From an uncultured delta proteobacterium (GTDB taxonomy: Bacteria; Desulfobacterota; Desulfobacteria; Desulfobacterales; JAFDCJ01): a stretch of 64,000 nt of DNA. The position numbers were made by a program, and so were the translations under genes. This document shows positions 1,918 to 62,082 of this stretch, piece after piece (position 1 is the first letter of the stretch; each line of letters begins with the position of its first letter). Under the pieces are notes generated by a model. That model saw nothing but the letters and a program-made list of their open reading frames with translations, had not been told where the DNA came from and searched no databases. Location: the NCBI GenBank assembly GCA_963769935.1, contig CAVYNY010000013.1:256001-320000 (forward strand), in the 5' to 3' direction.

Positions 1918-2086
1918 TCGCGTGACCGCGAAACAGGGGTGGAAGCGCACCACATAAGCACAGGCGCCTGGTGCTGGATAACGCATTAACTGGATATGGG
2001 TGATGATTTCCACGGATGGGAAGTCGTGGCGTTGTGGGATGACGCTCGCTTTGGGCTTGCGCACAGAAACGATAAGGACGTTTATC

Positions 2087-4498
2087 ATGAAATCAAAATC
2101 ATCAATTGTCTTATTTGCCTTTCTAATAATAGCGTTCCTGGTGCTGCTCTCCCTTTTTGTGGGATATTACGGCGACTGGCTGTGGTTTCGGAATATGGGT
2201 TTTGGCGCAGTATTTACCACGATCCTGTGGGCAAAGATCCTGTTGTTTTTTGTTTTTTTCATAATATTTGGCATTTTCGCCGGGGGGAACATTGTCATTG
2301 CAAGGGGACGGGGAATCCATACCCGCTCCTTGAAAGAGGTTTCCCCTGAACAACGCCTGACGCGTTTTGATATCGTTTTCAGCAATAAATACGCCAAATA
2401 TTCATGGGCTGCGATTATTCTGTTTTTTTCATTCATCATGGGTTCACAGGCATCCGGCTCATGGGAAACATTTTTGAAATTTCTGCATGCCTCCAAATTC
2501 GGGGTTGCCGACCCGATTTTTTCAAAGGATGCGGGCTTCTATGTTTTTCGCCTGCCGCTCTATAATTTTTTTGAGGGATGGTACTTTTTTTGTTTAATCA
2601 TTGCTTCCATCGGGGTCTATTTTGTGGTTCTCATAGGTTTTTCCTGGATTTATCCCGCCCTGATTGAACAATATGCGGTTAAGCCCACCGAGCTGACAAA
2701 GGAAACACCCTATATCCTCCATAACATAAAATTCACCCGTCTGGCCTTTGGGTTAGACAAGGTCGAAGAAAAACCTTTCGCGGTGCGGCAATCCATGACC
2801 TACGATGACATAAAGGAGAATGACGCCACCATCCATAACATCAGGCTCTGGGATACCCGGCCGTTGATCGAGACTTACAGACAATTGCAGGAAATCCGGC
2901 TTTATTATAATTTCAAAAATGTGGATGTGGATCGGTATCATTTCAAGGAGAGCTATACGCAGGTCGCCCTTGCAGCCAGAGAATTGCCTGCTTCGCAGCT
3001 TCCTGCCCGCGCCAGCACCTGGCTCAACATACATCTGAAATACACGCACGGTTACGGCTTGGTCATGAGCCCTGTAAACGAGGTCACAAAAGACGGTATG
3101 CCCGATCTCATTGTACAAAACATCCCTCCCAGCTCAAACGTCTTATCTATTACCCGTCCGGAAATCTACTATGGTGAGCAAACTGATCAGTATGCCCTTG
3201 TCAACACCAAAACCAAAGAGTTCGATTACCCAAGCGGCAATCAAAATGTGTATACCTCCTATCAGGGAAAGGGCGGCGTCCGGCTTTCCAGCCTTTTTCG
3301 AAGGCTGGTTTACACCTGGAACTTTTCGGACATAAAAATCCTCCTGACCAACTACCTGACAAACGAGAGCCGGATCATGTTCCATCGAGACATCGCGGAC
3401 CGTGATAATACGATTGCACCTTTTCTGGGGTATGATTCTGATCCCTATCTGGTAGTGGGCAAGGATGGCAACTTGTACTGGATACATGACGCATATACCA
3501 CCTCGAACATGTTTCCTTACTCACAGCCTTTTTCTCAGTCACTAAACAGCAGCGGACTCAATTACATTCGCAATTCCGTAAAGGTAGTCATTGATGCCTA
3601 TAACGGAGACGTTTCCTATTACGTCATTGATCCTTCAGATCCGCTGGTCCAGACCTATGAGAAAATCTTTCCCACCCTGTTTAAACCCATCAGCGAGATG
3701 TCTGCCTTTCTAAAGAGGCATATACGTTACCCCACGGATCTATTCCTGATCCAGGGACAAATGTACAATACATTCCACATGACAAACCCCCAGGTTTTCT
3801 ATAACCAGGAAGATTTGTGGAGTTTAGCAACGGAGGTTTACGATAAGAATGAGCAGCCAATGCTGCCTTATTATATCATCATGAGGTTACCGGACACCAA
3901 ATCGGAGGAGTTTATCTTGATGGTCCCTTTCACACCATCGAAGAAGAACAATATGGTGGCCTGGCTGTGCGCGCGCTGTGACGGCGATAATTACGGCCAA
4001 TTACTGGAATACAGCCTCTCCAAGGAAAAGTTGATTTACGGGCCATTGCAAATTGACGCCCGGATAAACCAGAAACCCGATATCTCTTCCAGTTTGACTC
4101 TCTGGGGACAAATGGGATCCAGCGTGATTCGAGGGAATTTGCTTGTGATCCCGATTGAGCATTCTTTCCTGTATGTAGAGCCTGTTTACCTCCAGGCGGA
4201 ACAAAGCAAGATGCCGGAATTAAAGCGTGTCATCGTTTCCCTTGGAAATCAATTGCAAATGCGCGATAATCTGGATGATGCCCTGCGAGCCGTCTTTTCT
4301 TTAGAGGCCGCTCCTCCCGCGCAAATACAAGAAGCCCTCACCGGATTACCAACCGGGCCCCTGTCCGACATGGCACAAGAGGCCCTGAACCATTACAATA
4401 AGGCCCTGGATTATCTAAAAAATGCTGACTGGACAAAATATGGTCAGGAATTAGATAAGATCAGGGATATTTTACAACGTATGGCCAAAAATAAATGA
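2087..4498 (+). CDS. UPF0182 family membrane protein, apparently with an in-frame internal deletion
   Basis: DWLWF, DPIFSKDAGFYVFRLP, NIRLWD, QEIRLYY, YTHGYG, PEIYYGE, NYIRNSVKVVIDAYNG, GNLLVIP, LYVEPVYLQA motifs; ATG at 2087 after aagga. Confidence 0.9.
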   Translation: MKSKSSIVLFAFLIIAFLVLLSLFVGYYGDWLWFRNMGFGAVFTTILWAKILLFFVFFIIFGIFAGGNIVIARGRGIHTRSLKEVSPEQRLTRFDIVFSNKYAKYSWAAIILFFSFIMGSQASGSWETFLKFLHASKFGVADPIFSKDAGFYVFRLPLYNFFEGWYFFCLIIASIGVYFVVLIGFSWIYPALIEQYAVKPTELTKETPYILHNIKFTRLAFGLDKVEEKPFAVRQSMTYDDIKENDATIHNIRLWDTRPLIETYRQLQEIRLYYNFKNVDVDRYHFKESYTQVALAARELPASQLPARASTWLNIHLKYTHGYGLVMSPVNEVTKDGMPDLIVQNIPPSSNVLSITRPEIYYGEQTDQYALVNTKTKEFDYPSGNQNVYTSYQGKGGVRLSSLFRRLVYTWNFSDIKILLTNYLTNESRIMFHRDIADRDNTIAPFLGYDSDPYLVVGKDGNLYWIHDAYTTSNMFPYSQPFSQSLNSSGLNYIRNSVKVVIDAYNGDVSYYVIDPSDPLVQTYEKIFPTLFKPISEMSAFLKRHIRYPTDLFLIQGQMYNTFHMTNPQVFYNQEDLWSLATEVYDKNEQPMLPYYIIMRLPDTKSEEFILMVPFTPSKKNNMVAWLCARCDGDNYGQLLEYSLSKEKLIYGPLQIDARINQKPDISSSLTLWGQMGSSVIRGNLLVIPIEHSFLYVEPVYLQAEQSKMPELKRVIVSLGNQLQMRDNLDDALRAVFSLEAAPPAQIQEALTGLPTGPLSDMAQEALNHYNKALDYLKNADWTKYGQELDKIRDILQRMAKNK

Positions 4499-4631
4499 TG
4501 CGGCGTCAGAACTCCAAAAAGCGGGCCATAGGGCCGCCAGGCACCTGATTCAGAGGACTGAGGAGGCAAAACCGAAAACGATTGAGATTAAAGCGGAATG
4601 AAATGACATATGCTCTAAGGCGGAAAGTGAT

Positions 4632-5648
4632 GTGATGAAAGGCAGATACCTCGGCCACCTCTCCCGCAGCGATCCCCTGAACGGTTATATCCAGGGGCAT
4701 ATCGCCCCCCAACTGGGGTTTTACGCCCCCGATGCGGTCTACAGGGTCTTCAAGTTCACCTGCTCCCGGTCCGTCTACCTCTATGAAGAGCAGCAGAGCA
4801 AGGTCCGCATCGTGGCGAAATTCCACCAAAATCATCTTCCGGGCGCGTCCTTTTTCCCCCGGAAAACCGGCGAAAAGGAGTTCAATGACCTTTTGTATAT
4901 ACGCAGCCTTGGCTTTACCTCCACCCCGCACTACGTGGTCAGGCCCCTGGGGTACAACCCGGGCATCGGCAACGCCCTGCTGGTGGAGTATCTGGAGGGC
5001 GATCAGTTGTCTTCGGTGATCAACAACGCTATTTTCCAGGGCAACTGTGGTCGTCTCTACCAAAAGCTGGCCGCTTTGGCCCATTTTCTGGTTTCTCTGC
5101 ATAACCGCACCGCCGGGGATTGGCGCGTTAACCATGAAGAAACCCACGACTATGCCGGCAAGCTCATCCATTCCCTGGTGACCAAATGGGGAATGGACGC
5201 GGCGGATTCGGGGGAACTCTACTTTCTGCGCGACCAGTGGCGATCCAAAAGCTGCATGTGGGAGGACCGGGCCGTGCTGGTCCACGGCGACGCCACGCCG
5301 TCGAACTTCCTGTTCGGTCACGGCCGCCACACTATGGCCATCGATTTCGAGCGCATGAAATGGGCTGACCGCGTCTTCGATCTGGGTAGGCTGTGCGGCG
5401 AACTTAAGCATTTTTTCTTCCAGGCCACGGGCGATGCCTACGCGGCCGAGCCCTTCATCGGTCATTTCCTCTGGGAATACTGCTGCCACTTTCCCGACCG
5501 CATGAGCGCCTTTAGGTCCATCACCCGGCGTACGCCTTTCCATATGGGGATCACCCTGCTGCGCATCGCCCGAAATTCCTGGATCGACTGGGAATACCGG
5601 TGGCGGCTGATCCGCGAGGCCAAGGCCATCCTGAGAGTATTGCCATGA
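4632..5648 (+). CDS. Aminoglycoside phosphotransferase/choline kinase-like protein
   Basis: VLVHGDATPSNF and IDFE catalytic motifs of the APH fold. Confidence 0.8.
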   Translation: MMKGRYLGHLSRSDPLNGYIQGHIAPQLGFYAPDAVYRVFKFTCSRSVYLYEEQQSKVRIVAKFHQNHLPGASFFPRKTGEKEFNDLLYIRSLGFTSTPHYVVRPLGYNPGIGNALLVEYLEGDQLSSVINNAIFQGNCGRLYQKLAALAHFLVSLHNRTAGDWRVNHEETHDYAGKLIHSLVTKWGMDAADSGELYFLRDQWRSKSCMWEDRAVLVHGDATPSNFLFGHGRHTMAIDFERMKWADRVFDLGRLCGELKHFFFQATGDAYAAEPFIGHFLWEYCCHFPDRMSAFRSITRRTPFHMGITLLRIARNSWIDWEYRWRLIREAKAILRVLP

Positions 5649-5720
5649 TCATCAAGGCTATCCTTTTCGACATCAACACCGACGAAGCCAACGAGGAAAT
5701 CTACCGGGGGATAAGTGACC
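5645..5720 (+). pseudogene. HAD-family hydrolase N-terminal remnant
   Basis: MIIKAILFDINTDEANEEIYRGIS overlapping the APH stop (ATGA); motif I lacks the GTL part and the gene is truncated. Confidence 0.55.
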
Positions 5721-5778
5721 CTGAGATCCCAGTAAGTTACGAAACCTGCAGCATGGAATAAACAGGAGAATGCTCATT

Positions 5779-45436: not shown

Positions 45437-46673
45437 TTATTCAGACTTCCCGGCTCTGGCCGCCTCAATCTCCGCTTCGGGACGCCAGGAATCCGGGCCT
45501 TTGACCTCGACCAGATCATGGTAGATGGGGAAAGGATACCTGGGGTCATCGGCCACCACACCGAGGTAGGAAGAGCAGCTCAGCTGGTTGTCAATCTCAC
45601 GAAAATAGAGCCGGCCGCGGGTCGTATCGACGGTTGCCCCCTTGAGCGCATCCTTGACTTTATCGCTGTCGATGCTGCCTGCCTTTTCAATGCCCTGTTT
45701 CAGGACATACACCGCGTCATATTCCATTACGGCCCAGTCACTCGGATAGCGGTTGTAAACCTTTCTGAAGTTCGCTACAAAATTCGCCATCATGGGTACA
45801 TCCAGGTGGGCAAAAAAGGGCGCCCGGCACAATCCGACCAGACCGCGGGTAAGCGTTTTGGCTTCAATGATCAGCTCGGAGACACTGATCAACGATCCGG
45901 GATAAGGTATTTTGTCGAAGAATCCGTAGGCCGTCGCCTGCTGATTGAAGGCCACGTTGTCTTTTGAAGCCAGGGAACCGATTACAAAATCCGGCTTCTG
46001 GCTCATGATCGCCGTAATATAAGAGGTAAACTGCGTCTCGCCCAGGGCCGGCCAGTACTCTTTTTGCAGTGTCAATTCGGGTGCGTATTGTTTCAAGAGG
46101 GCCACCGTATTATTTTGGGTCGATCGGCCCCACTCATAATCCGAGGCAATGGTTATGTAATTTTTCCAGCCTTTCTTTTTGGCCAGCTGCAGCAACGCCT
46201 AAAACGACGGCCTTGGCCTGCATATAGCTGTTGGGAACCACCGAGTAGGTGTAAGGGCTGAAATTGACTTTGGTGATATTCTCCGAATTGCTGATGGCCG
46301 GAATATGAAGCACCTTGTGCTCCTGGGCCACCGGTTTTATGGCCACGGCACAGGCGCTGGAATAGGTCCCCAGAATGGTACGAACTTTATCCCGCAGGAT
46401 CAGGTCCCTGGCCTCGCGTACCGCAATGTCCGGTTTCGTATGGGTGTCGCGGATAAAGAGCTTGATGGGGTACTTGCCCAGGAATCCGCCCTGGGCGTTA
46501 ATCTCCTTCACGGCGAGTGAGATGGCGTCGATGCCGTCCTTGCAGTATAAAGCGCCGGTGCCGGTAATCGCCAGGTCGACTCCCAGATTATAAGTCTCCG
46601 CAGCCGGCGCCATGGCGGCGACCGCAATCACCATAAAAACACCAAGAAAAATTATAAAGCATTTACTTTTCAT
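45437..46673 (-). CDS. LIV-family substrate-binding protein, frameshift ~46190
   Basis: ORFs 46134-46673 (signal peptide, INAQGG, GTYSS) and 45437-46195 (DYEWG, YDAV, FRE.DNQ) join with one extra base. Confidence 0.85.
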
Positions 46674-48680: not shown

Positions 48681-49538
48681 TCAATACGTCAACACAACCC
48701 CGCCATCAAACAGCAAATCGCCGCCGACCAGATACCTGGCGTGTTTCGAAAAGCCGAAAATAAAAAGATTGGCCGCTTCGATCGGCGACATCATTTCCTT
48801 GATGCGCGAGGGGCCCATCATGACATCCCGCACGACGGCCTCCTGGGTAATTCCGCGCTGCTCGGCCTGGGCCGGGATCTGGTTCAGCGCCAGAGGGGTT
48901 TTGACAAATCCAGTGCTGATCGTAAAAGAGCGGATCCGGCCTTCTCCTTCCGCCGATATGGATTGGCTCAGGGCCCTTAAACCGAATTTGGTAATGTTGT
49001 AAACCGGTTTGTTTTTGGTACATATGTGGGCGTGGATGGAAGCCATATGGCCGATAACCCCGATACCATCGCTGCTTTGCTTCATGTGGCCGATGGCTAA
49101 TTTGGAAAGATAAAACGGTGCCCGCAGCATCAGGCGCTGCATCAGGTCGTATTTTTCCATGGGGAAATTTTCCACCGAATCAATGTGCTGGATGCCGGCG
49201 ATGTTGGCCACGTACCTGATGGATCCCAGTTTGGCGGCCTCGGATACGGCGCTTTCAATATCCGCATCCTGGGTCAGGTCGGTTTGGATAAAAATCATCT
49301 GTCCGCCCAGTTCACGGGCCAGATTCCGGGTCTTTTTACCCTCCTCTTTATTGATGTCCAGGCCCACGGTCATCAGGTTATTGGCGGCGGCGGCAATGGC
49401 CGTGGCCCTGCCGATTCCGGTGCCCGCACCGGTCACTACGCACACGTTGTCATGATTAAAACTTTGGTCTTCGAGAAAAAGAATTTCTTCCCGCTGAATA
49501 TGCGGTTCTCTTGTATCTGCAGGCTTTTGGGTCGGCAT
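48681..49538 (-). CDS. 3-hydroxybutyrate dehydrogenase-like SDR
   Basis: TGAGTGIG, AGIQH, ASIH, K..Y...K, GFVKTPL..QIP, characteristic of BdhA-type SDRs; lies next to the PHA genes. Confidence 0.75.
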   Translation of the reverse strand: MPTQKPADTREPHIQREEILFLEDQSFNHDNVCVVTGAGTGIGRATAIAAAANNLMTVGLDINKEEGKKTRNLARELGGQMIFIQTDLTQDADIESAVSEAAKLGSIRYVANIAGIQHIDSVENFPMEKYDLMQRLMLRAPFYLSKLAIGHMKQSSDGIGVIGHMASIHAHICTKNKPVYNITKFGLRALSQSISAEGEGRIRSFTISTGFVKTPLALNQIPAQAEQRGITQEAVVRDVMMGPSRIKEMMSPIEAANLFIFGFSKHARYLVGGDLLFDGGVVLTY

Positions 49539-50381: not shown

Positions 50382-50819
50382 TCATTTCGACTGCTTCTTT
50401 GGTGCCCGGGGCGGGCTCACCAGGGCTTCACCATCCACCACGGTGATATTCTCCTGATTGATGCAGTAAGTTTTGAGACGAACTTGTTTCTTGTCGGCTA
50501 TGATTTCAGCCACCTCGACGATGGCGGTGACGGTATCCCCGAATTTGACCGGTGCCCGGAAACTGACCTCCTGGCGCATGTAGACCGTTCCGGGCCCCGG
50601 CAGCATCGTACCGATGACGGTGGATATGAAGCTGGCCGACAGCATTCCGTGAACGATGCGGGTTTTAAAAAAAGTATCTTTGGCATACGCCTCATTGACA
50701 TGCGCCGGATTGAGGTCGCCGGTTACCCCGGCAAATAAATAGACATCGGACTCGGAAACCGTTTTGGAAAATTTGGCCGTGTCGCCCACCTGCAGTTCTT
50801 CAATTGTTTTTCCATTCAT
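50382..50819 (-). CDS. MaoC-family (R)-specific enoyl-CoA hydratase (PhaJ-like)
   Basis: FAGVTGDLNPAH, RIVHGML, LPGPG..Y..Q..F.APV..GD. Confidence 0.85.
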   Translation of the reverse strand: MNGKTIEELQVGDTAKFSKTVSESDVYLFAGVTGDLNPAHVNEAYAKDTFFKTRIVHGMLSASFISTVIGTMLPGPGTVYMRQEVSFRAPVKFGDTVTAIVEVAEIIADKKQVRLKTYCINQENITVVDGEALVSPPRAPKKQSK

Positions 50820-50852
50820 CATCGATCCTCCTTGTCGAAAACCATAGCTTGA

Positions 50853-51198: not shown

Positions 51199-52641
51199 AT
51201 GCCGGATTCCTTAATGACATTGTTTCCCTTTGTGCTCAACAGTCTTGAAGCCATGAAGATGCCGCTTCAGGCCTCCCTGGCATTCAATCAGGCCCAAATG
51301 CAATCGCTGGCCGCAAGCGTCGACATGTATAAAAACACCCAGGACCTGACTCTGAACTGGGCGCGCCGATATTCGCGCCTTTTGCCCACCGGATACCTTC
51401 AAAACGGCGACAAACTGCTGAAGCTTTATCAGGAGGGGGAGGCATCGCTGCTGGATTTGTGTAAAGAAAATATATTAAACCACCTGAGCCGATTTCAACA
51501 AAAACGTGCGGGCGAGCTGGAGTTTCTCAAGTTGTTCACCGATCAATGCAGCCGTCAGGAATGGCACGTCGAATACGACCCTTCGAAAATTCTGCTCGAC
51601 TTGCCCGGTCTGCGGGTGATCGACATTTCGGCGGATGTGCGGCATCGCATCTTAAACTATGGGGTTGTTTTTGCCCCGCGCGCCGGCCACCACTCCAACA
51701 TAGCCGAGCGGGTCGCTCTTTTCCTGCGTGATCAGGGACTGACCCGCATGGTGGTGGTGGAACAAAAATGCGCCGCCGACATCCCGCTTTATGTCGATGG
51801 TCAACGCCATCGGGAGGATTTTGAGGGTCAGGTCGACCAGTATCGGCAGGTGCTGGAACTCCTGAAACAGCGCACCGGACATTCACCCCATTTGATCGCC
51901 ATCTGTCAACCCGGACCCCTGCTGCTGAGCACCCTGATTTTATATCCGGAACTGGGCCGCACCTTCGGATCGGCCGGCTCCCCCATGCATACCGAAGCCG
52001 AAAAAGGATTCTTGACAGAATTTGCCCGTGCGGCCGGTGAAGCCTATATTGACCGGATGATTGCCCTTTTCGGCCACACCATCGGCGAGGATTATCCCGG
52101 TGCCGGACGGTTGACATACGATGGCCGGCTGCAGGTGCTGGGTTTTTATTTGATGGGCTGGGATCAACATTTCAAGAACTTCAAAGATCTTCTGAATGAC
52201 ATGAAAAAGGGAGACAGGGAAGCCGCCCGGCGTCAAAAAGCATTTTATCAGTGGTACAACACGGTGCATCACTTTCCGGCGGGCTTTATCCGCGACACTT
52301 ACAAAAAAATATTTGTCCAAAACGCCCTGATCCGCGGTCACCTCGAAATCGGCGGCCAAAAAGTGGATATTGCCGATTATCCGGTTCAGACTCCCATCTG
52401 GGCCTTGGGCGGCACGACGGACCCTATTGCTCCGCCCCTGCAGGCGGTCGGCCACATGGATTTGATGCCGGCCATGGCTCAGCAAAACCGCCTGCGTCTT
52501 TTATGCGACGCCGGCCACATGGGACTCTTCCGCTCCCAACGCATTTTAAAACAGTACTACCGCCGGATAGCAGATTTTCTCATTGACTCACAGCGACTAT
52601 GCCAACCGGGAGTTTATGTACTAAAAGGCACGAAGCATTGA
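51199..52641 (+). CDS. phaZ: Intracellular PHB depolymerase-like protein
   Basis: APRAGH, HLIAICQPG (Cys nucleophile as in intracellular PhaZ), AGSPM, Y.G.LQ..GF, GHMGLF. Confidence 0.7.
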   Translation: MPDSLMTLFPFVLNSLEAMKMPLQASLAFNQAQMQSLAASVDMYKNTQDLTLNWARRYSRLLPTGYLQNGDKLLKLYQEGEASLLDLCKENILNHLSRFQQKRAGELEFLKLFTDQCSRQEWHVEYDPSKILLDLPGLRVIDISADVRHRILNYGVVFAPRAGHHSNIAERVALFLRDQGLTRMVVVEQKCAADIPLYVDGQRHREDFEGQVDQYRQVLELLKQRTGHSPHLIAICQPGPLLLSTLILYPELGRTFGSAGSPMHTEAEKGFLTEFARAAGEAYIDRMIALFGHTIGEDYPGAGRLTYDGRLQVLGFYLMGWDQHFKNFKDLLNDMKKGDREAARRQKAFYQWYNTVHHFPAGFIRDTYKKIFVQNALIRGHLEIGGQKVDIADYPVQTPIWALGGTTDPIAPPLQAVGHMDLMPAMAQQNRLRLLCDAGHMGLFRSQRILKQYYRRIADFLIDSQRLCQPGVYVLKGTKH

Positions 52642-52817
52642 ATATTGAAAATTGAAGATTGAATATTTATGGATTTCAGTCGGTTTAAATTTGAATATTC
52701 TAAATTCTTATCCGCCCTCCTTATTGGTGCATTAGGATTTATTACTCTGGTTTTTTTTGCTTAGCATGCAAAATTAAATCGATAGGATACCGCAAATATT
52801 CAATTTCAATATTCAAT
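52637..52817. repeat. 7-bp-unit (attgaat/attgaag) inverted repeat between convergent phaZ and phaR
   Basis: attgaatattgaaaattgaagattgaatattt ... aaatattcaatttcaatattcaat. Confidence 0.75.
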
Positions 52818-53280
52818 CTTCATTCTCCTTAGTTGGCGGTTTCGATTCGCCGAATTGATCGAAAAACGCCTGAAAGGGATTGAGTCGGGTCAATGACTGC
52901 TGCGCCATTCCCGAAAGATCCATCCCCACTTCCAGCCATTTTTTAAATTGCTCATCAGCCTTGCTTTTATACGACACGTAGGATTTGATGGTCTGTTCGA
53001 GGTAATTCTCAAAAAATTCATGCAGCACATTCTCGCCGTATCAAATAATCATGTGCAGTAGGGGCACTGGCAACAAGGCATTATTATTTTTAGCCTCTTC
53101 CAAAATGATCTGCGTCAGGACAAAGGCCGTCACATCCTCTTTGGTCTTGGCGTCAATCGCTTGGATCGTTTTACCCTGCCGGATGATGTCGGCCACTTCG
53201 CTCAGGGTCACATAGGCGCTTTTTTGGGTGTCATACAGGCGCCGGTTGGCATATTTTTTCAGCACGATCCTGTCATTCAT
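52813..53280 (-). CDS. phaR: PHA synthesis repressor PhaR with in-frame TGA at 53041-53043
   Basis: LKKYANRRLYDT..S.YVTL, D.KT.EDVT...L.QII; frame continues LHMII*YGENVLHEFF. Confidence 0.85.
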
Positions 53281-53446: not shown

Positions 53447-53497
53447 TTTTGTGCAATGCAAAAATTTTATTGACAAGGTTTAAAAACCGTTTATATT
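53447..53497 (+). promoter_or_regulatory. Sigma70-like promoter with adjacent TGC-rich near-palindrome (candidate PhaR site)
   Basis: ttttgtgcaatgcaaaaa upstream of TTGACA (53470) and TATATT (53492). Confidence 0.5.
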
Positions 53498-53592
53498 AAT
53501 CGCAAGGTCGGATGCAACAAAATTCGATTGGGAGGAAGTACTCATAACATGTTCGCAGAAACAATTGCAAAACAAATGATGGGAGGTAAAAA

Positions 53593-53865
53593 ATGATGGA
53601 ACCGAATGTATTGCTAAAACAAATGTTGGATTTTAACAAAACCGCCTTCGACAACAGCTTTAGTGCGATGTTGATGATTCAGGAGCAAAATGCCAAAATG
53701 GTAAACACCTTTCTGGAGCAGGCCGCCTGGATGCCCGAAGAAGGCAAAAAACTCATCCGGAACTGGGTTGATGTTTACAAAAAGGGATGTGAAGACTTCA
53801 AGAAAGCCGCCAATGAAAATTATAAAAAGGTGGATGAATTTTTCGCAGGCCAAAAGTCCGAATAA
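53593..53865 (+). CDS. Phasin-like small helical protein
   Basis: 90 aa, amphipathic helical pattern; divergent from phaR; RBS ggaggt. Confidence 0.6.
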   Translation: MMEPNVLLKQMLDFNKTAFDNSFSAMLMIQEQNAKMVNTFLEQAAWMPEEGKKLIRNWVDVYKKGCEDFKKAANENYKKVDEFFAGQKSE

Positions 53866-53906
53866 TCCATGATGACGGCACACGGGATGACGAAAGGGAA
53901 TGGGAT

Positions 53907-55525
53907 ATGAATGCACATATTGACGATACGACCGGTAAAATTTTGGCGCGATCTTCCGGAATACCAGCGCCAGATGCTTCAACTCGCCGCAGCACAAATG
54001 CGAACCGGTGTGGTCATACGGCAGCGCTCTTGTCAAGTATCACCATGAATTCATGCAGCCCTTCTGGATCGCACTGGACGCGTTCTTAACCACGGAAAAA
54101 GAAAAACTCCTGCGTCATCCTCCTGCCGATAGTATGCGGGACTATTTTGAGCTTTTGCAGTTCAACCTTCAGGTGGCCGAGAAGGGATTCCATAGCGGTC
54201 TGAACGCCATGCTGGACTACCACGGCGCCAGGACCAATAAAGCCATGCAGGCATGGCTGAATACCATCTTCAAGCGTGAAGGAGAGACGATTGTCGATTT
54301 TACCGAAAATGAGGCCCGGTTGCTGGAGACCCTCCTTTACGACTATCCTGAAAGCCATTCGCGCCATAAAACCCGAATACGGCTTCCACTTCGATAACGG
54401 CGGCTACGTCAAAGCCGGCGAAACGGACCGCTTTCTGGTATATCAGGTGTTGCCGACCAACCACGAGGGTGTCAGAGAGAACGGCAAACCGGTTCTCATC
54501 GTGCCGCCTTATGTTCTGGGGGCCAACATCCTGGCATTTTTACCCGGGGAAAACAAAAGCTATGTGCATGCCTATGCCAATCAGGGGATCCCCACCTACA
54601 TTCGCATTCTCAAAGATATCGCTGCGACGCCGGCCGTGCAAACCCTCACCGGAGAACAGGATGCGCTGGATACCCGCACATTTTGTGAGATCATTAAAAA
54701 AAGGCACGGGCAACCCGTCACCCTGAACGGCTTCTGCCAGGGGGGATTTGTAGCTATGACCGGCCTGCTGTCCGGCGAACTGGACGACCTGGTGGATGCC
54801 TTGATTACCTGCGTGGCGCCCATGGACGGCACCCGCAGCAAAGCCCTGGTGGAGTACATGCAGCACCTTCCGCCGCGTTTCAAAGACCTGGGCTATGCCG
54901 TCAAACCATTGCCCAACGGCAACCGCGTCGTGGACGGCAAGGTTATGAGCTGGGTTTACAAGCTGAAAAGCATGGAAAATGAAGCGCCGTTGTATACCCT
55001 GTATCGAGACTTGAAAATGTTTCGACAACGCGGTACCGCGGACCGGCCAAAATCAGCAAAACGGCGGCCGCCATCAACAATTGGTTAATTTATGACCGCA
55101 ATGACCTGCCCGAAGCGATAACCAAAATGAGTTTCGATTCCTATACCATCCCGGTGGATCGCCAAGGCAACCTGCCCTTCAAGCTGTTCGACCGCAGCCT
55201 GAATTTCAAGCGTCTGCAGGAAAAAAACATCCCGTTTCTCATTTGCTATGGTGAAAAAGACGACCTGGTGGATAAGGAAGCCGCCTTGGCGCCGCTGGAT
55301 TACATCCCGGCCGAAGTTACCTGTTTTCCCAAAGGCCACGGCGCAATTGCCACCTCCTGGTCGCAGCCTGATTCCGCCTGTGCCCTGCACACCCGATTCG
55401 GCGACAACTACCGCGGTCCGGTCCGCTTTCATTTGGACCTTGAGAACGGTATCAGCGCGAAACCGATCCAGGATGACATATCTTTGATTTCACACCAAAG
55501 TGAGTGGTGTTTGCCGATCGGATAG
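53907..55525 (+). CDS. PhaC-like alpha/beta-fold protein (second synthase-like gene), several frameshifts
   Basis: Joined ORFs 54008-54397, 54276-55088 and 55127-55525 give PVLIVPPYV, LNGFCQGG (Cys), YGEKDDLV (Asp), KGHGAI (His). Confidence 0.6.
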
Positions 55526-55563
55526 ACCCCATGGAATAATGGAATGTTGGGAATCAAAAGCCG

Positions 55564-56040
55564 ATGGACAGACAATTCTTAGAATTCTGGGGCAATTACC
55601 TGCTGGCGGCTGCCAGAGGACAAAAGCAGCTGGAGGATCTGAATCAATGGATTCGGCCAGGGATTCAGCGGATTTGAAGAATTGACCGCCATGTTCAAAA
55701 AGTTTTACGGCCTCGAGCAGCCCCGCACTGAAGACTCGGATACAACGCAAGGCGTGGCAGAATGCGGCGGCCGACTTTCGCAACTCCTTCAATGCCTATT
55801 TGAATCTGATGGGTCTGGTCCCAAAAGACAAATACCGGGCGCTGGAACAAAAGTGTACCACGCTGCAAAAAAAAGTCGCTGAACAGGAGGATACCATCAA
55901 GGTCGCTGAGAAAACTGCTGGCCGAGGAGGGCACCTATCAGGGCGAGACCGTCAAGGTTTTTCAGGATCTGGTGAAAAAGCAGGCGGACGCATTTGAGGC
56001 GTTAATGAAAAGTATAGCGCCAGCGGCTAAAGAAGAATAG
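55564..56040 (+). CDS. Small coiled-coil hypothetical protein (~155-160 aa), frameshifted
   Basis: MDRQFLEFWGNYLL... to ...LNLMGLVPKDKYRALEQKCTTLQKKV...KVFQDLVKKQADAFEALMKS* reconstructed across frames. Confidence 0.55.
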
Positions 56041-56062: not shown

Positions 56063-57109
56063 TCAAAACCACGAGCGATGGCTCCAGATATCGTCTTTTA
56101 GCTCTTTCATGTCATCCTGCAGCGCCAGATACATTGAAGCATTCTGGATCGCCAGGCCGCCGGTTTGGGCCAAGGCGTTGACCAGCAGGATGATATCTTC
56201 AGGATAGCTGCGTTTGACGGCACTGCAAAGCCGCATGATTCCGATGACCTCCTCCTTGACCTTGATGGGAACCACCAGCATGGAAGCAATACCCTCCCGC
56301 ATGACCTCATCCCGGTATTGGATTCGCTCATCATTGGCGACATCATCGATGATGACCGTCTCGCCTTGCATGGCCTTGGTGACGGACTTTTCGGCCGACA
56401 GCGGGCCCTTGTTTAAAAATTCTTCGCTCAAGCCGTGGCTGGCCACCAGCTGCAGATTGCCGGTCTCCTTATTCAGGAGACGGATGACGACCCCTTGCAT
56501 GCCCAAGGCTTCGCTGAGGTCCACTGTCAGGTTGTGAAAGATCTTCTTAACATCCAGGGAAGAGTTGATGTTGGAGGCCAGGTCCAAAAAGAGCATGGAG
56601 TTTTTCTGAATACGCTCCAGCAGACGGGCCCTTTGGATGGCCATACCGCCTTGTTCGGCCAGGGCGGTTAAAAATTCGATTTCATCGGTGGAAAAATCTC
56701 GTACGTCGGCAGTGTATAACGCCAGCACGCCGATCACCTTGTCTCTGACCATCACCGGCACATCCAATATGGAGGCAATGCCATCGGCTTTCTTGGCTGC
56801 ATGGTTTTCAACGCGCGGATCAGAGGTTGCATCACGAATGGCAAGATAGCCGCCTTTTAAGACGGCCAGTACGATGGCTTTGGCCCGCAGGGGTTTGGCG
56901 TGCAGGTAGTCGTCCGAAAGTCCCTTTTGCGCCGTCGGAACGAAAACATCTCGTTTTTCATCAGCCAGAAACAGGCAGGCTGCTTTGGCATTCATCGTTT
57001 CAATGGCGCTTTCTACAATCAGATCCAGAATCTTTTCCTTGGAAAGTGTTGATCCGAAGGCTTTGCTCACCTTGCAGAATGTTCTGAAATAATCCTTCTC
57101 TTTTGTCAT
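56063..57109 (-). CDS. Tandem GAF-domain protein without output domain
   Basis: Two repeats of GLS..(Y/F)L..D...D.R...GIAS.L.VP..IG.L.L. Confidence 0.85.
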   Translation of the reverse strand: MTKEKDYFRTFCKVSKAFGSTLSKEKILDLIVESAIETMNAKAACLFLADEKRDVFVPTAQKGLSDDYLHAKPLRAKAIVLAVLKGGYLAIRDATSDPRVENHAAKKADGIASILDVPVMVRDKVIGVLALYTADVRDFSTDEIEFLTALAEQGGMAIQRARLLERIQKNSMLFLDLASNINSSLDVKKIFHNLTVDLSEALGMQGVVIRLLNKETGNLQLVASHGLSEEFLNKGPLSAEKSVTKAMQGETVIIDDVANDERIQYRDEVMREGIASMLVVPIKVKEEVIGIMRLCSAVKRSYPEDIILLVNALAQTGGLAIQNASMYLALQDDMKELKDDIWSHRSWF

Positions 57110-58318
57110 ACAATATCTCCTCGCAGTTGGGATCGTGAGCTGCTCTTTCTTGGCCGGGTTGAAGGCTTATTTTTTGCTGCAGCCTTGCGGGAATCTCCTT
57201 TGGCAGAGGCTGGTTTCTTTTTCCGGCGCCCGTCATCTTCCGTATCCCGATCCATAAGCCATGCGGCTATCTTCGGTGCAAATTCCTTCTGGCACTTCGA
57301 ACTCACATAGATGCCGATGTGACCGGTATCCAGGCACACATCTTCGGTATCGCGGCTGCCGACTTTGCGAGGTCAGCAGCTCGCAGGCCGCGGGTGGCAC
57401 CAGATGATCAAACTTGCCGTAGAAATTCAACAGCGGCATCGTGATATTTTTCAAGTCGACCCGGCGTCCCCCGACCTCCATCTGGTTTTGAATCAACAGG
57501 TTCTTTTGATAGCAATCTTTGACAAACTGGCGAAATGTTTCGCCGGGTACGTCCGGACTGTCAAATATCCATTTTTCCATGCGAATGAAATTTTCGACAA
57601 ATGTTTTGTCGTCCATGCCCTCCAAAAAGCCGACGTATTTATCGATCATCAATCGCGCCGGGTTCAGCAGCAAAAACCCGAAGTTTAAAAAGTCGCCCGG
57701 CATATTGCCGAAGGTATCCACCATCCGGTCCGCATCCACATTTTTCATCCAGATGTGCAGCAATCCCTGATCGGTGTCAAAATTGGTGGGGGTGACGGTG
57801 GTCACCAGATTTTTTAATTTTTCGGGATGCAGCGCAGCATAAATGACGCTGAAGGTGCCGCCCATACAGATTCCCATCAGGTTGATTTTGTCCACCTTAT
57901 GCCGGGCACGAATGAAATCAACCATATTGTCCATATAGCCGTTGACGTGGTCGTCAATGGTCAGAAACTTATCTTTGCGGGTCGGATAGCCCCAATCAAC
58001 CATATACAGATCGATGCCGAAATCCTGAAAGATTTTCACGACGCTGCGCCCCGGCTGCAGATCGAGCATGGTTTCCCGGTTGATCAGGGCGTAAACCACC
58101 AGCAGCGGCCGCCTTAGTTTTGGCGCCTGATTTGGCTGATAATATTTCAGTTTGACACGATCTTCTTCATAGACAATATCGTAGGGCGTCTTAGCGATGC
58201 CGGTGTCCAACTCCTGGAGTAAAACATCGGAAGCTTTCTGAACACGGGTGCGGGCCTTCTCGGCGTCTTCGGCCAGTCTGGTGAGAATTAAGTCAACGGG
58301 GATTTTGGGTTTTTCCAT
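57106..58318 (-). CDS. phaC: Class III PHA synthase subunit PhaC; frameshift ~57370
   Basis: PLLVVYALIN, DLQP.RS, DWGYP, GICMGG, MEKWIFDSPD.PGE, DHLVPP; GHIG in the shifted frame; basic C-terminal tail. Confidence 0.92.
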
Positions 58319-58347: not shown

Positions 58348-59268
58348 TTAGGCTGTGGGTAACTGCTGTTTCTGAGAATCTGATTGCAACGTATATTTTT
58401 CTTTTTCCAGGATTTTAATCCTTTTTTTCAGCTGATACATTTCTTTGTAAAGTTCATCGAGTTCATTTTGAGTCGGCACCGCCATGGCCTTTAAAATATC
58501 CTGGCCAATGGCATTGCGCGCTTCAACAAAATCTTCAAGGGCACCCAGGGTGTTTCCCATGATCTTTACATAGTCGGGGGATTTGAACAGGGACATGTAA
58601 TGTCCTTCCAGAATTTTTATATATACCTTATAAAAGTCGTTCGAATTTTCGGGCAATTTCCCTTCCCGCGCCATGTCGGATAGTTGCTCCTGAAAAACCT
58701 TGAAAGATTTTTCGACCGGCAGCAGGATCAGATGCATAAACTCCGCATACTGGGACTGAAAGCGGTTGTGTTTGTCCAGCGTCGCGTTGATTTTTTCCTG
58801 ATAGAATCGGGTGAGCCCAAGCTGGGGGATATGAAAAAATTGCCGGAACTCCTTTTCGTAAATTTCCGTCCAGGCCTTGAAGACCTCTTCATCGAGATTG
58901 TCAAAGTTAAAGGCGCGGGTCGATTCACCGATTCGGCCGGCCTTTTCCAGCCACTGCTGCTGAAGATAAAAATAGCTTCTCCACCCGGCCTCGACGATTT
59001 GCAGCAAAAATTGCGGCATCGCCCGGCCCAGATTGGAAAACGCTTCCATGGCGCCGGAATCCCCGGCGACCGATGAAAGCGTCTGCCAGGAGCTAAACAC
59101 CGTTTCAAAGGATTCCTGTGTACGGCTTTTCTCACCCTTTGCGGAATCGTCACCGGCCGCATCCTTTTTCGCCCAGTTCTGAAGCATGGAACCCCAGAAA
59201 TCCGCCGCGGATTTGATCCAGGCCGACAGCAAGGTATCGGCGGCTTGATTACCTTTTTGATTATCCAT
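58348..59268 (-). CDS. phaE: Class III PHA synthase subunit PhaE
   Basis: PQLGLTRFYQE, VPTQNELDELYKEMYQLKKRI; directly upstream of phaC. Confidence 0.88.
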   Translation of the reverse strand: MDNQKGNQAADTLLSAWIKSAADFWGSMLQNWAKKDAAGDDSAKGEKSRTQESFETVFSSWQTLSSVAGDSGAMEAFSNLGRAMPQFLLQIVEAGWRSYFYLQQQWLEKAGRIGESTRAFNFDNLDEEVFKAWTEIYEKEFRQFFHIPQLGLTRFYQEKINATLDKHNRFQSQYAEFMHLILLPVEKSFKVFQEQLSDMAREGKLPENSNDFYKVYIKILEGHYMSLFKSPDYVKIMGNTLGALEDFVEARNAIGQDILKAMAVPTQNELDELYKEMYQLKKRIKILEKEKYTLQSDSQKQQLPTA

Positions 59269-59628
59269 GAGATATAGCCTTAGTGCAAAGCGGTTGATAA
59301 TTTTGCCCGGGTGTCGCGGCGGTGGGTCGCTGAAAGGCGCCGCAACATTTCCCAATGGAACTCAGACGCCTGCCACGCAGCAATTGGCCAGAATTAGCCA
59401 AAATAAGGACCGGATAAATTGAAATGTTGAATTGGATTCCGATATCAATTACCCCCCGCTATCAGGACCCAATTTGAAAATATAAGATAATATAGAAGTT
59501 AACAAAGTCTACGGGATTGTCAACTGTGATTTTTAGTGCAGGTTCTGAAGTTTTTAGTAGCATCTCGATCCAATGAATGATAATTTTCATTAGATCAGGT
59601 GAAGTTTTATCGCTTCGAGGTTCGATAA

Positions 59629-61530: not shown

Positions 61531-62082
61531 ATGAGAAATTTACAGCTCAATTATGAGACGCTCATCAAGATAACCAAATCCCTGTCCAAATCGAAAAACC
61601 CGGAAGAAATCATCAAAATGACGGTTGAAAGCATTAAATCATCTTTAGGCATCAAAGGTTGCGCACTGTTTTTGATCAATGGTCAGACAAAGGATCTGGA
61701 AATAGCGGCATCCGCAGGACTCAGCGAGGAGTATTTGAACAAGGGCACGGTCAGCGCCCTGCGATCCATTGCCGATTCGCTGAAAGAAGGACCCGTTGCG
61801 GTCTATGACGTCAGCGATGATCCCCGCATCCAATATCCCGAAGCCGCCAAAAAGGAAGGCATTGCTTCCATTCTTTCCGTACCGATTCTGCTGGGCGATG
61901 ATGCCATCGGGGCCATCCGGGCCTATACGGCCGATAAATGGGAATTTACCCTGGATGATGTGAATTTCGTGCAAGCCTTAGCCCAGATCGCCGGCATCCT
62001 GATCGAGATGACCCGGCTCCACCAAGGCCAGAATGAACACATTGAAGCCTTGGCGACGATGTGTTCATCGCCGAATCTGTAG
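61531..62082 (+). CDS. Single GAF-domain protein
   Basis: GLSEEYLNKG, DDPRIQYP, EGIASILSVP; similar to the second GAF of 56063-57109. Confidence 0.85.
   Translation: MRNLQLNYETLIKITKSLSKSKNPEEIIKMTVESIKSSLGIKGCALFLINGQTKDLEIAASAGLSEEYLNKGTVSALRSIADSLKEGPVAVYDVSDDPRIQYPEAAKKEGIASILSVPILLGDDAIGAIRAYTADKWEFTLDDVNFVQALAQIAGILIEMTRLHQGQNEHIEALATMCSSPNL

Follow-up and report, generated by a model that had tools for sequence, protein, structure and literature searches.

Polyhydroxyalkanoate (PHA) synthases are sorted into few classes, and the accessible part of PMC5509742 sets out the roles of the PhaC Cys, Asp, His and Trp residues, including Trp392/Trp425. PhaR represses phasin genes until polymer lifts the repression, and leucine-zipper motifs are common in phasins (accessible parts of PMC7204398 and PMC5658603, respectively). 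PHA accumulation is known in the bacterial group considered here (Desulfonema entry; accessible part of PMC9957297), and no description of a PHA re-use route in sulfate-reducing and syntrophic bacteria was found in the literature searched. We analysed the pha locus in a 64,000-nucleotide stretch from an uncultured delta proteobacterium of the Desulfobacterales (contig CAVYNY010000013.1, positions 256,001 to 320,000; hereafter the window), in which a canonical class III phaE-phaC pair is accompanied by a gene of about 525 amino acids (aa), here called X, and by a 157-aa gene downstream of it, whose product we call the small protein. By the tests run, X falls outside classes I-III, PhaZ and DUF3141 and makes up an unnamed branch of its own in the PHA-synthase superfamily. 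It represents a large family, central to the PHA locus of sediment Desulfobacterota, that has no Pfam or NCBIfam model and is misnamed in databases; no published description of it was found in the open-access literature searched by title or start of abstract, supplements not covered, and no mention of PHA was found in the accessible part of PMC5109826.

Gene X and its place in the superfamily

Gene X lies on the forward strand at 53907-55525, its true 3' end falling between about 55460 and 55525. The reference throughout is the closest intact orthologue, that of L002/L021 (X of 528 aa, small protein of 158 aa; 94% identity across query residues 26-254). The AlphaFold model of X (predicted local distance difference test score 88.6) consists of an N-terminal three-helix domain (about residues 18-155, helices 18-67, 72-120 and 128-155) followed by an alpha/beta-hydrolase domain, with C276 on a strand-turn-helix elbow. 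The peptides from which the original prediction had read a PhaC-type triad are all in the window (GFCQGG from 54729, EKDDLV from 55253, KGHG from 55331): the catalytic Cys codon (C276) is at 54735-54737, in a C-Q-G-G found in 77 of 77 core members, and the predicted catalytic Asp (D450) and His (H476, in K-G-H) are at 55259-55261 and 55337-55339, all on the forward strand. This triad is invariant across the core family, and D450 and H476 align with the Asp and His of class I and III PhaC (for the Asp, by hhalign). N273-G274-x-C276-Q277-G278-G279 and H476 are invariant in A1 and A3, giving an elbow of the form G-x-C-x-G-G, not C-Q-P, while W391, also invariant, aligns with the PhaC cap-helix Trp (Trp392/Trp425). 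The first active-site loop, P-P-Y-V-L-G-A-N-I-L-A-F-L-P, has the PhaC layout and aligns with the PhaC loop; it lacks the P-x-[SA]-G-H present in the listed representatives of PhaZ, the PhaZ-like proteins, DUF3141 and a 364-aa hydrolase described below.

Structural alignment against the PDB (VIA-align) placed class I PhaC on top (9knj, Z 28.5, root-mean-square deviation 3.4, 315 aligned; 5t6o, Z 26.6), above the best lipase (Z 23.4) and Bacillus PhaZ 8ynv (Z 18.4), and every Foldseek match listed to rank 13 is a PhaC. PDB sequence searches with X and with A1 gave no match. The sole NCBIfam match is TIGR01836 (class III PhaC), at 26.5-35.7 bits against a cut-off of 365.3, with no match to TIGR01838 or TIGR01839; Pfam returns weak alpha/beta-hydrolase matches. 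No PhaZ model matches X (TIGR01849 with a threshold of E 0.1 in NCBIfam, PF06850 with one of E 1 in Pfam), and PF11339 (DUF3141) is not matched by core X and only weakly by 2 of 40 distant members. Profile-profile comparison gave E 9.6e-14 for class III PhaC, 2.9e-10 for the ~600-aa Syntrophales PhaC-like protein, 1.8e-8 for DUF3141, 2.9e-8 for class I, 5.9e-6 for PhaZ-like and 0.019 for PhaZ, the weakest; of the synthase classes, the tests cover I-III. The HMM scans and structure comparison thus bear out the earlier call of a PhaC-type Cys-Asp-His enzyme without a curated family. The N-terminal domain, compared with phasins, PhaE and the N-domains of class I and PhaZ-like proteins, gave nothing above probability 14%. 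The NCBI name shown for the homologues, 'metal transporter', was rejected: the fold is that of a hydrolase, and no transporter family appears in the Pfam and NCBIfam scans.

In a 51-row tree, which omits 11 sampled rows and a class III sequence from Sinorhizobium with a motif that escaped the pattern, X forms one clade (Shimodaira-Hasegawa-like approximate likelihood ratio test, SH-aLRT, 100); its long branch lies between those of the synthases (80) and of a PhaZ/DUF3141 group (93). The family comprises 2,074 homologues among 7,998 candidates scored, and 488 stretches in a species-representative genome collection. A profile search of 1.84 billion representatives returned only 339 clusters at E<=0.001, which marks the family as compact and not running over into PhaC. 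Viral contigs hold no relative of X, and plasmids hold a single weak match (E 0.04), a DUF3141-type protein. Among variant architectures, P0121, P0123, P0125 and P0126 end in a C-terminal tail of 120-140 aa that is Lys/Ala-rich or of low complexity and recalls the histone-like tails of PhaF and PhaM, and P0134 (938 aa) fuses TIR and NB-ARC to a complete X catalytic domain with C-Q-G-G, possibly as a defence-type effector or a chimeric assembly. Separately, a ~600-aa PhaC-like protein (L093, L076, L157 and related loci) has C-M-A-G and D-P-I motifs and its own long branch near the synthases.

The protein of ~530 aa described in the original prediction is not a single open reading frame (ORF) in the window, where frameshifts leave frames of 129, 270 and 132 aa; its length holds for the 7 of 22 same-genus genomes that match X, with open frames of 507-547 aa. 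The start at 53593 given for the module is that of the 90-aa phasin-like gene, ahead of X itself. Alignment to L021-L023 locates extra single bases in X at about 53931-53940, 54014-54016, 54349-54354 and 55019-55034, in the small gene at about 55652-55655, 55747-55752 and 55905, and in phaC at about 57370. The contigs of one public DNA run (X1) and of RNA runs X2, X4 and X5 lack bases 53931, 54016, 54349, 55019 and 55749, and those of the RNA runs alone also lack base 55655; 55905 and 57370 are not among the matches listed. Because the inserted bases are mostly missing from these public contigs and the frames are open in relatives, the breaks in X, the small gene and phaC are most likely assembly errors, a genuine pseudogene being judged unlikely.

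Distribution and predicted control of the locus

Locus counts given here are for the best 80 of 488 related genome loci, many of which end early at contig ends; record titles among the 80/488 loci are mostly Desulfobacterales, Desulfobacteraceae, Syntrophales and Desulfomonilia metagenome-assembled genomes. Of the 80 loci, 74 have a phasin-like gene, 67 the small gene, 59 phaR, 54 a PhaC-like gene of any kind, 51 phaE, 49 a GAF protein, 40 MaoC and 21 a PhaZ-like gene, and most have one to four phasin-like paralogues ahead of X. The window shows the order MaoC-like (-), PhaZ-like (+), phaR (-) and phasin-like/X/small gene (+), convergent with GAF-GAF, phaC and phaE (-). The proximity of X to pha genes noted earlier is therefore a conserved feature in this survey.

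An order-wide sample of 151 genomes (150 at >=90% completeness plus the window's own), which are kin and for which we claim no statistical test, contains X in 55 and a class III PhaC scoring above the cut-off in 62; 51 genomes have the two together, and 85 have neither. PhaR is present in 54 of the 55 X genomes and DUF3141 in 42; in the phylum-wide sample, X occurs in 11 of 201. A subgroup of about 490 aa, known from metagenome contigs, lies beside phaE, class III phaC, a thiolase, an OB-fold protein and a reductase (L227, L233, L266), with no phasin-like or small-gene match in its loci. After X and in the same direction, a reductase is found in nine loci (L039, L046, L140-L143, L205, L233 and L251), the seven scanned scoring as FabG/PhaB-type over 3-hydroxybutyrate dehydrogenase (BdhA-type), all below the cut-offs. 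Distant members occur in records labelled Ca. Parcubacteria, Ca. Lloydbacteria and Ca. Woesearchaeota; L191 (7.9 kb, with X of the Ca. Lloydbacteria-labelled cluster) has a thiolase, an OB-fold-like ORF and a distant X in a row (2019-5747), with no phaEC there.

Several further arrangements were seen in the same genomes and loci. DUF3141 occurs in 52 of the 151 order genomes, 49 of them with class III PhaC, so that up to four Cys-hydrolase branches stand beside PhaEC. L227, L233, L266 and related loci have class III phaE-phaC operons with an archaeal-type thiolase and a ChsH2/DUF35 OB-fold partner, X and a FabG-like reductase being nearby. A 364-aa C-Q-G-G hydrolase takes the PhaZ position beside phaR in L056 (7163-8254) and nine similar Desulfomonilia-type loci; with weak DUF3141, PHB_depo_C and TIGR01836 matches, it is another unnamed branch.

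The intergenic region between phaR and the phasin-like gene carries a TGC-N3-GCA palindrome (TGCAATGCA, 53452-53460), a predicted PhaR operator, which lies just upstream of the -35 element, nine bases ahead of a predicted sigma70-like promoter, TTGACA-16-TATATT (53470-53497, +), for the phasin-X-small-protein unit. The palindrome is present in 72 of 74 phaR-phasin spacers, compared with a mean of 5.1 and a maximum of 11 after block shuffling; it is at chance upstream of phaE, phaC, GAF, in-operon X and the small gene, and upstream of PhaZ-like genes (8/20) slightly exceeds the shuffled maximum of 6. The promoter matches the consensus at 11 of 12 positions, in a region where promoter-like sites number five, equal to chance (mean 5.2), and where a terminator scan gave nothing over chance. 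As the box is conserved and repression of phasin genes by PhaR is established elsewhere, the operon proposed in the original prediction is reasonably taken to be likely under PhaR control, judging from the spacer boxes and the promoter match. Metatranscriptome contigs from three runs of one study, picked by matching this stretch, span phasin-X-small gene and phaEC, with higher depth over phasin-X and contig starts at 53518-53522 in two runs; we claim neither an expression level nor co-transcription from them.

The phaR gene itself (52813-53280, -; PF07879 E 1.8e-27), divergent from the phasin-like gene, has an in-frame TGA (53041-53043) at an Arg of its orthologues, leaving ORFs at 53041-53280 and 52813-53028. 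The orthologues are intact at 146-160 aa, and the window's phaR has no indel relative to L021. The TGA may be a sequencing error or a genuine loss of the repressor in this strain.

What X and the small protein may do

We tentatively favour X as an accessory polyester synthase acting on the PHA granule beside class III PhaEC, without the small protein as a fixed subunit, and consider it rather probable that X is a synthase in one form or another. For a synthase we count the fold, the PhaC-type loop, G-x-C-x-G-G, W391, TIGR01836 as best match and the FabG and thiolase neighbours, together with the presence in 46 of the 55 X genomes of another Cys-hydrolase candidate (a PhaZ-type TIGR01849 match in 18, and DUF3141 in 28 of the other 37). 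On this synthase reading, PhaEC would start the granule by nucleating polymer, which would titrate PhaR off the TGC-N3-GCA box and so turn on the phasin-X-small-protein unit. Phasins, X and the small protein would then coat the granule, X docking by the helical domain at its own N-terminus, which sits where class I PhaC has its N-domain. An (R)-3-hydroxyacyl group, made available by the neighbouring MaoC/PhaJ or FabG-like reductase, would pass from coenzyme A (CoA) to C276, with D450 and H476 driving ester formation, and X would add polymerising or chain-transfer capacity, possibly for another monomer range. The small protein, with its coiled coil, would act at the granule surface or in assembly as a factor common to the PHA machinery.

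A number of observations count against a synthase. X almost never replaces PhaEC: a class III PhaC passes the cut-off in 51 of its 55 genomes, and the remaining four are all fragmented assemblies, two of which keep a piece of phaC and of phaE, respectively, at a contig end. The PDB comparison contains no Cys-type PhaZ or DUF3141 chain, so its fold ranking does not separate a synthase from those families, and the 364-aa hydrolase scores as high against X (profile E 6.4e-14) as class III PhaC. X is without the Asn-Lys/Arg pair of the PhaC beta4-loop (L203-G204 there) and without the S-W/D-W motif, and its N-domain has no profile similarity to that of class I (E 0.37). After the catalytic Asp, X has D451 where PhaC has His (D-H in 46 of 46 class III and four of five class I references, one unparsed); D-D-[LI] is common to X (D-D-L, 76/77), PhaZ (D-D-I in the three parsed) and the 364-aa hydrolase. 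Judged by these residues, X is a mosaic, synthase-like in architecture and PhaZ-like at one gate residue. Finally, approximately unbiased (AU) tests, run on 30 of the tree rows with quick trees lacking a mixture model, reject none of four placements of X (p 0.22 with PhaZ, 0.27 with class III, 0.28 with DUF3141, 0.35 with class I). The original prediction had kept both synthase and Cys-type depolymerase in play, and the phylogeny does not choose between them either.

A depolymerase is the strongest rival, and we regard it as possible, if not our first choice: X would be an intracellular Cys-type enzyme, hydrolytic or thiolytic (returning monomers to CoA), loaded onto the granule with the phasins. 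Thiolysis would suit energy-limited sulfate reducers and syntrophs, and the near-total dependence of X on a separate synthase, in the 51 of 55 genomes above, fits such a role, as does the lack of a TIGR01849 match in 37 X genomes, nine of which have neither TIGR01849 nor DUF3141. X shares C-Q and D-D with PhaZ, and under the PhaR logic outlined in the accessible part of PMC7204398 its co-regulation with phasin would mean that it is likely made once polymer exists. The distant homologues in Ca. Parcubacteria, Ca. Lloydbacteria and Ca. Woesearchaeota records, with L191 free of phaEC, point in the same direction. The FabG-like and thiolase neighbours are reversible enzymes and can be counted for degradation too. 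Against this stand the bottom rank of PhaZ in the profile comparison, the missing PF06850 and TIGR01849 matches, the absence of C-Q-P and P-x-S-G-H, and the poor diagnostic value of C-Q, which is found in 11 of 46 class III PhaC; moreover, a PhaZ-like gene is already present in the window as in 21 of the 80 loci, and the 364-aa hydrolase in 10 others.

The pairing of X with the small protein, which the original prediction had proposed as its PhaE- or PhaR-type subunit, fared less well, and a dedicated two-subunit synthase in which the small protein would replace PhaE or the Bacillus PhaR is in our judgement unlikely. The small gene (55564-56040, +; orthologue L002:463-936) encodes an all-helical protein with a long coiled coil (model helices 3-16, 22-31, 38-47, 58-81, 87-120 and 126-156, the 34-residue helix coiled-coil-like), one of 604 homologues of 150-200 aa with an N-terminal M-D-x-x-F-L-E-F-W-G motif; Foldseek with the model gave no match at E<=0.001. 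The likeness to the PhaE C-terminus that had been noted, between LNLMGLVPKDKYRALEQKCTTLQKKV (from 55800) and a PhaE segment on the minus strand at 58494, is genuine and weak: the best profile match of the small protein is the PhaE C-terminal half (E 2.9e-4, probability 41%, 118 columns), whereas the reversed control gave E 0.18 and other helical families E>=0.02, and a 115-aa PhaE-domain cluster of the ESM Atlas (0.83) is a lead only. The gene also keeps company with X, mostly directly behind it in the 67 of the 80 closest loci that have it, and as all 45 genomes with a strong match carry X (adjoining it in 30), the link is genuine.

Yet in the other 15 of these 45 genomes the two genes lie apart, 10 of the 55 X genomes have no strong match, and weaker homologues occur in seven phaC genomes without X. 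The small gene stands right before phaE-phaC in L149, L150 and L151 and behind phasins in L155-L159, L167 and L168, and has no match near X in the loci of the ~490-aa subgroup; X, unlike class III PhaC, has a 155-residue helical N-domain of its own. Single-member matches (44 members, all weak) are more often to BMFP (20) and the PhaF/PhaI-type TIGR01837 (16) than to PhaE TIGR01834 (6), and PF09712 is weak in four of the 44 (best E 7.9e-5). Co-folding of X (A3, 5-518) with the small protein (A2, 1-152) scored 0.00 in two runs, and with controls not folded and the partner fold uncertain we use it neither way. The small protein is more likely a granule-surface protein than an obligate subunit of X, and it may activate X in trans.

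It is quite improbable that X serves PhaE as an alternative catalytic subunit or modifies the PhaEC complex, roles that would account for its near-constant phaEC company: besides co-occurring with class III PhaC, X runs unbroken in one direction with phaE-phaC in Syntrophales-type loci and in L233, but in the window phaEC converges on X from the opposite strand, and class III PhaC has nothing like the large N-domain of X. Least probable of all is a role outside PHA metabolism, as an acyltransferase or thioesterase whose gene simply lies in pha loci, for which speak the many copies alone among unrelated genes (L144, L145, L165, L169, L170, L172, L173, L175, L176, L179, L181-L185, L187) and the box in only 3 of 20 orphan upstream regions (shuffled mean 1.8), and against which stand the presence of X in just 4 of 89 order genomes without class III PhaC over the cut-off, the recurrence of the PHA context in the distant ~490-aa subgroup and a fold closest to PhaC.

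A bolder proposal, less likely than not, is that X might found a new class of PHA-metabolising enzyme, either a further synthase class set apart by its N-domain and a changed active-site gate or an anaerobe depolymerase that conserves CoA, spread over about one third of the order genomes, a second lineage with phaE-phaC-thiolase operons and symbionts of the candidate phyla radiation (CPR) and DPANN; were it true, a thiolase and X without phaEC would let these symbionts make or scavenge polyester. If X is a synthase, it would be a new synthase type, with a new monomer range and bioplastic use. If it is a depolymerase, it would be the missing depolymerase of these anaerobes, with a bearing on carbon storage in sediments and anaerobic PHA turnover. 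The locus offers, besides X, a conserved operator-like box and two unnamed small granule-protein families.

Neighbouring genes and comparison with known systems

The other genes of the locus are of more familiar kinds. Upstream lie a MaoC/PhaJ-like (R)-enoyl-CoA hydratase (50382-50822, -; PF01575 E 3.7e-24), a likely monomer supplier, and the PhaZ-like Cys hydrolase with C-Q-P-G (51199-52641, +; PF06850 E 9e-27), likely the conventional depolymerase of the locus: it scores 120.7 bits with TIGR01849, under the cut-off of 300.75, and groups with PhaZ (SH-aLRT 98). The 90-aa phasin-like gene (53593-53865, +) is so labelled from size and position; compared with PF09361, PF05597, PF09602 and PF09650, 3 of 24 family members match (E 0.009-0.04), none above the cut-off. 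On the opposite strand, the canonical class III phaC (57136-58318, -), whose 3' end is estimated from a 393-aa orthologue, scores 388.8 bits with TIGR01836, above its cut-off, and phaE (58348-59355, -, given as ORF limits; orthologues about 299 aa) matches PF09712 at E 1.2e-26. Conserved behind phaC, a 348-aa GAF-GAF protein (56063-57109, -) matches PF13185 twice.

That GAF-GAF protein has no output domain and may sense a metabolite for the PHA locus; among the 49 GAF matches, a few are GAF proteins of other kinds. A related gene with one GAF domain lies at 61531-62082. Near the PhaZ-like gene, a short-chain dehydrogenase/reductase (48681-49538) has its best matches in 3-hydroxybutyrate dehydrogenase models (176 bits, below cut-off), which fits a mobilisation arm. 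A branched-chain-type ABC binding-protein gene (45437-46673) is split into overlapping ORFs of 179 and 252 aa, likely by another assembly indel.

Set against described systems, X finds its best fold match in class I PhaC (Aeromonas caviae 9knj/9knk, Cupriavidus necator 5t6o/5hz2, Chromobacterium 5xav; TIGR01838), with Z 26.6-28.5, and shares with it the G-x-C-x-G-G elbow, the equivalent Asp and His, the conserved Trp, a helical domain N-terminal to the catalytic domain and a similar size. It differs in having about 15% identity, no TIGR01838 match, an N-domain without detectable relation, neither the Asn-Lys pair nor the S-W motif, and Asp for His after the catalytic Asp. Class III PhaC-PhaE (TIGR01836/TIGR01834), reportedly present in Desulfococcus multivorans (Hai et al. 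2004), gives X its best HMM and joint-best profile match, and the two share a W..D..D-[LV]-P segment, the locus and the genomes, the small protein faintly resembling the PhaE C-half; X, however, has about 528 aa instead of about 350-400, a large N-domain and a clade of its own, and coexists with PhaEC.

With intracellular Cys-type PhaZ (TIGR01849, PF06850), X has in common a Cys followed by Gln, D-D-[IL] at the acid and a position in the phaR/phasin locus, whereas it has no HMM match to PhaZ, the weakest profile similarity, no C-Q-P and no P-x-S-G-H loop, and a separate PhaZ-like gene lies 1.3 kb upstream of its start. DUF3141 (PF11339), an uncharacterised Cys hydrolase of the same superfamily, resembles X in its C-Q elbow, in profile similarity (E 1.8e-8) and in the genomes it shares, and differs in its loop and acid motifs and in its clade, a sister relation not being rejected (p 0.28). 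The small protein, for its part, is like PhaF/PhaI-type proteins (PF05597, TIGR01837) and BMFP (PF04380) in being short and helical, with a 'G-[VL]-V-P/S-R' turn ahead of a coiled coil, and unlike them in its own N-terminal motif and length, all its matches to them lying far under the cut-offs.

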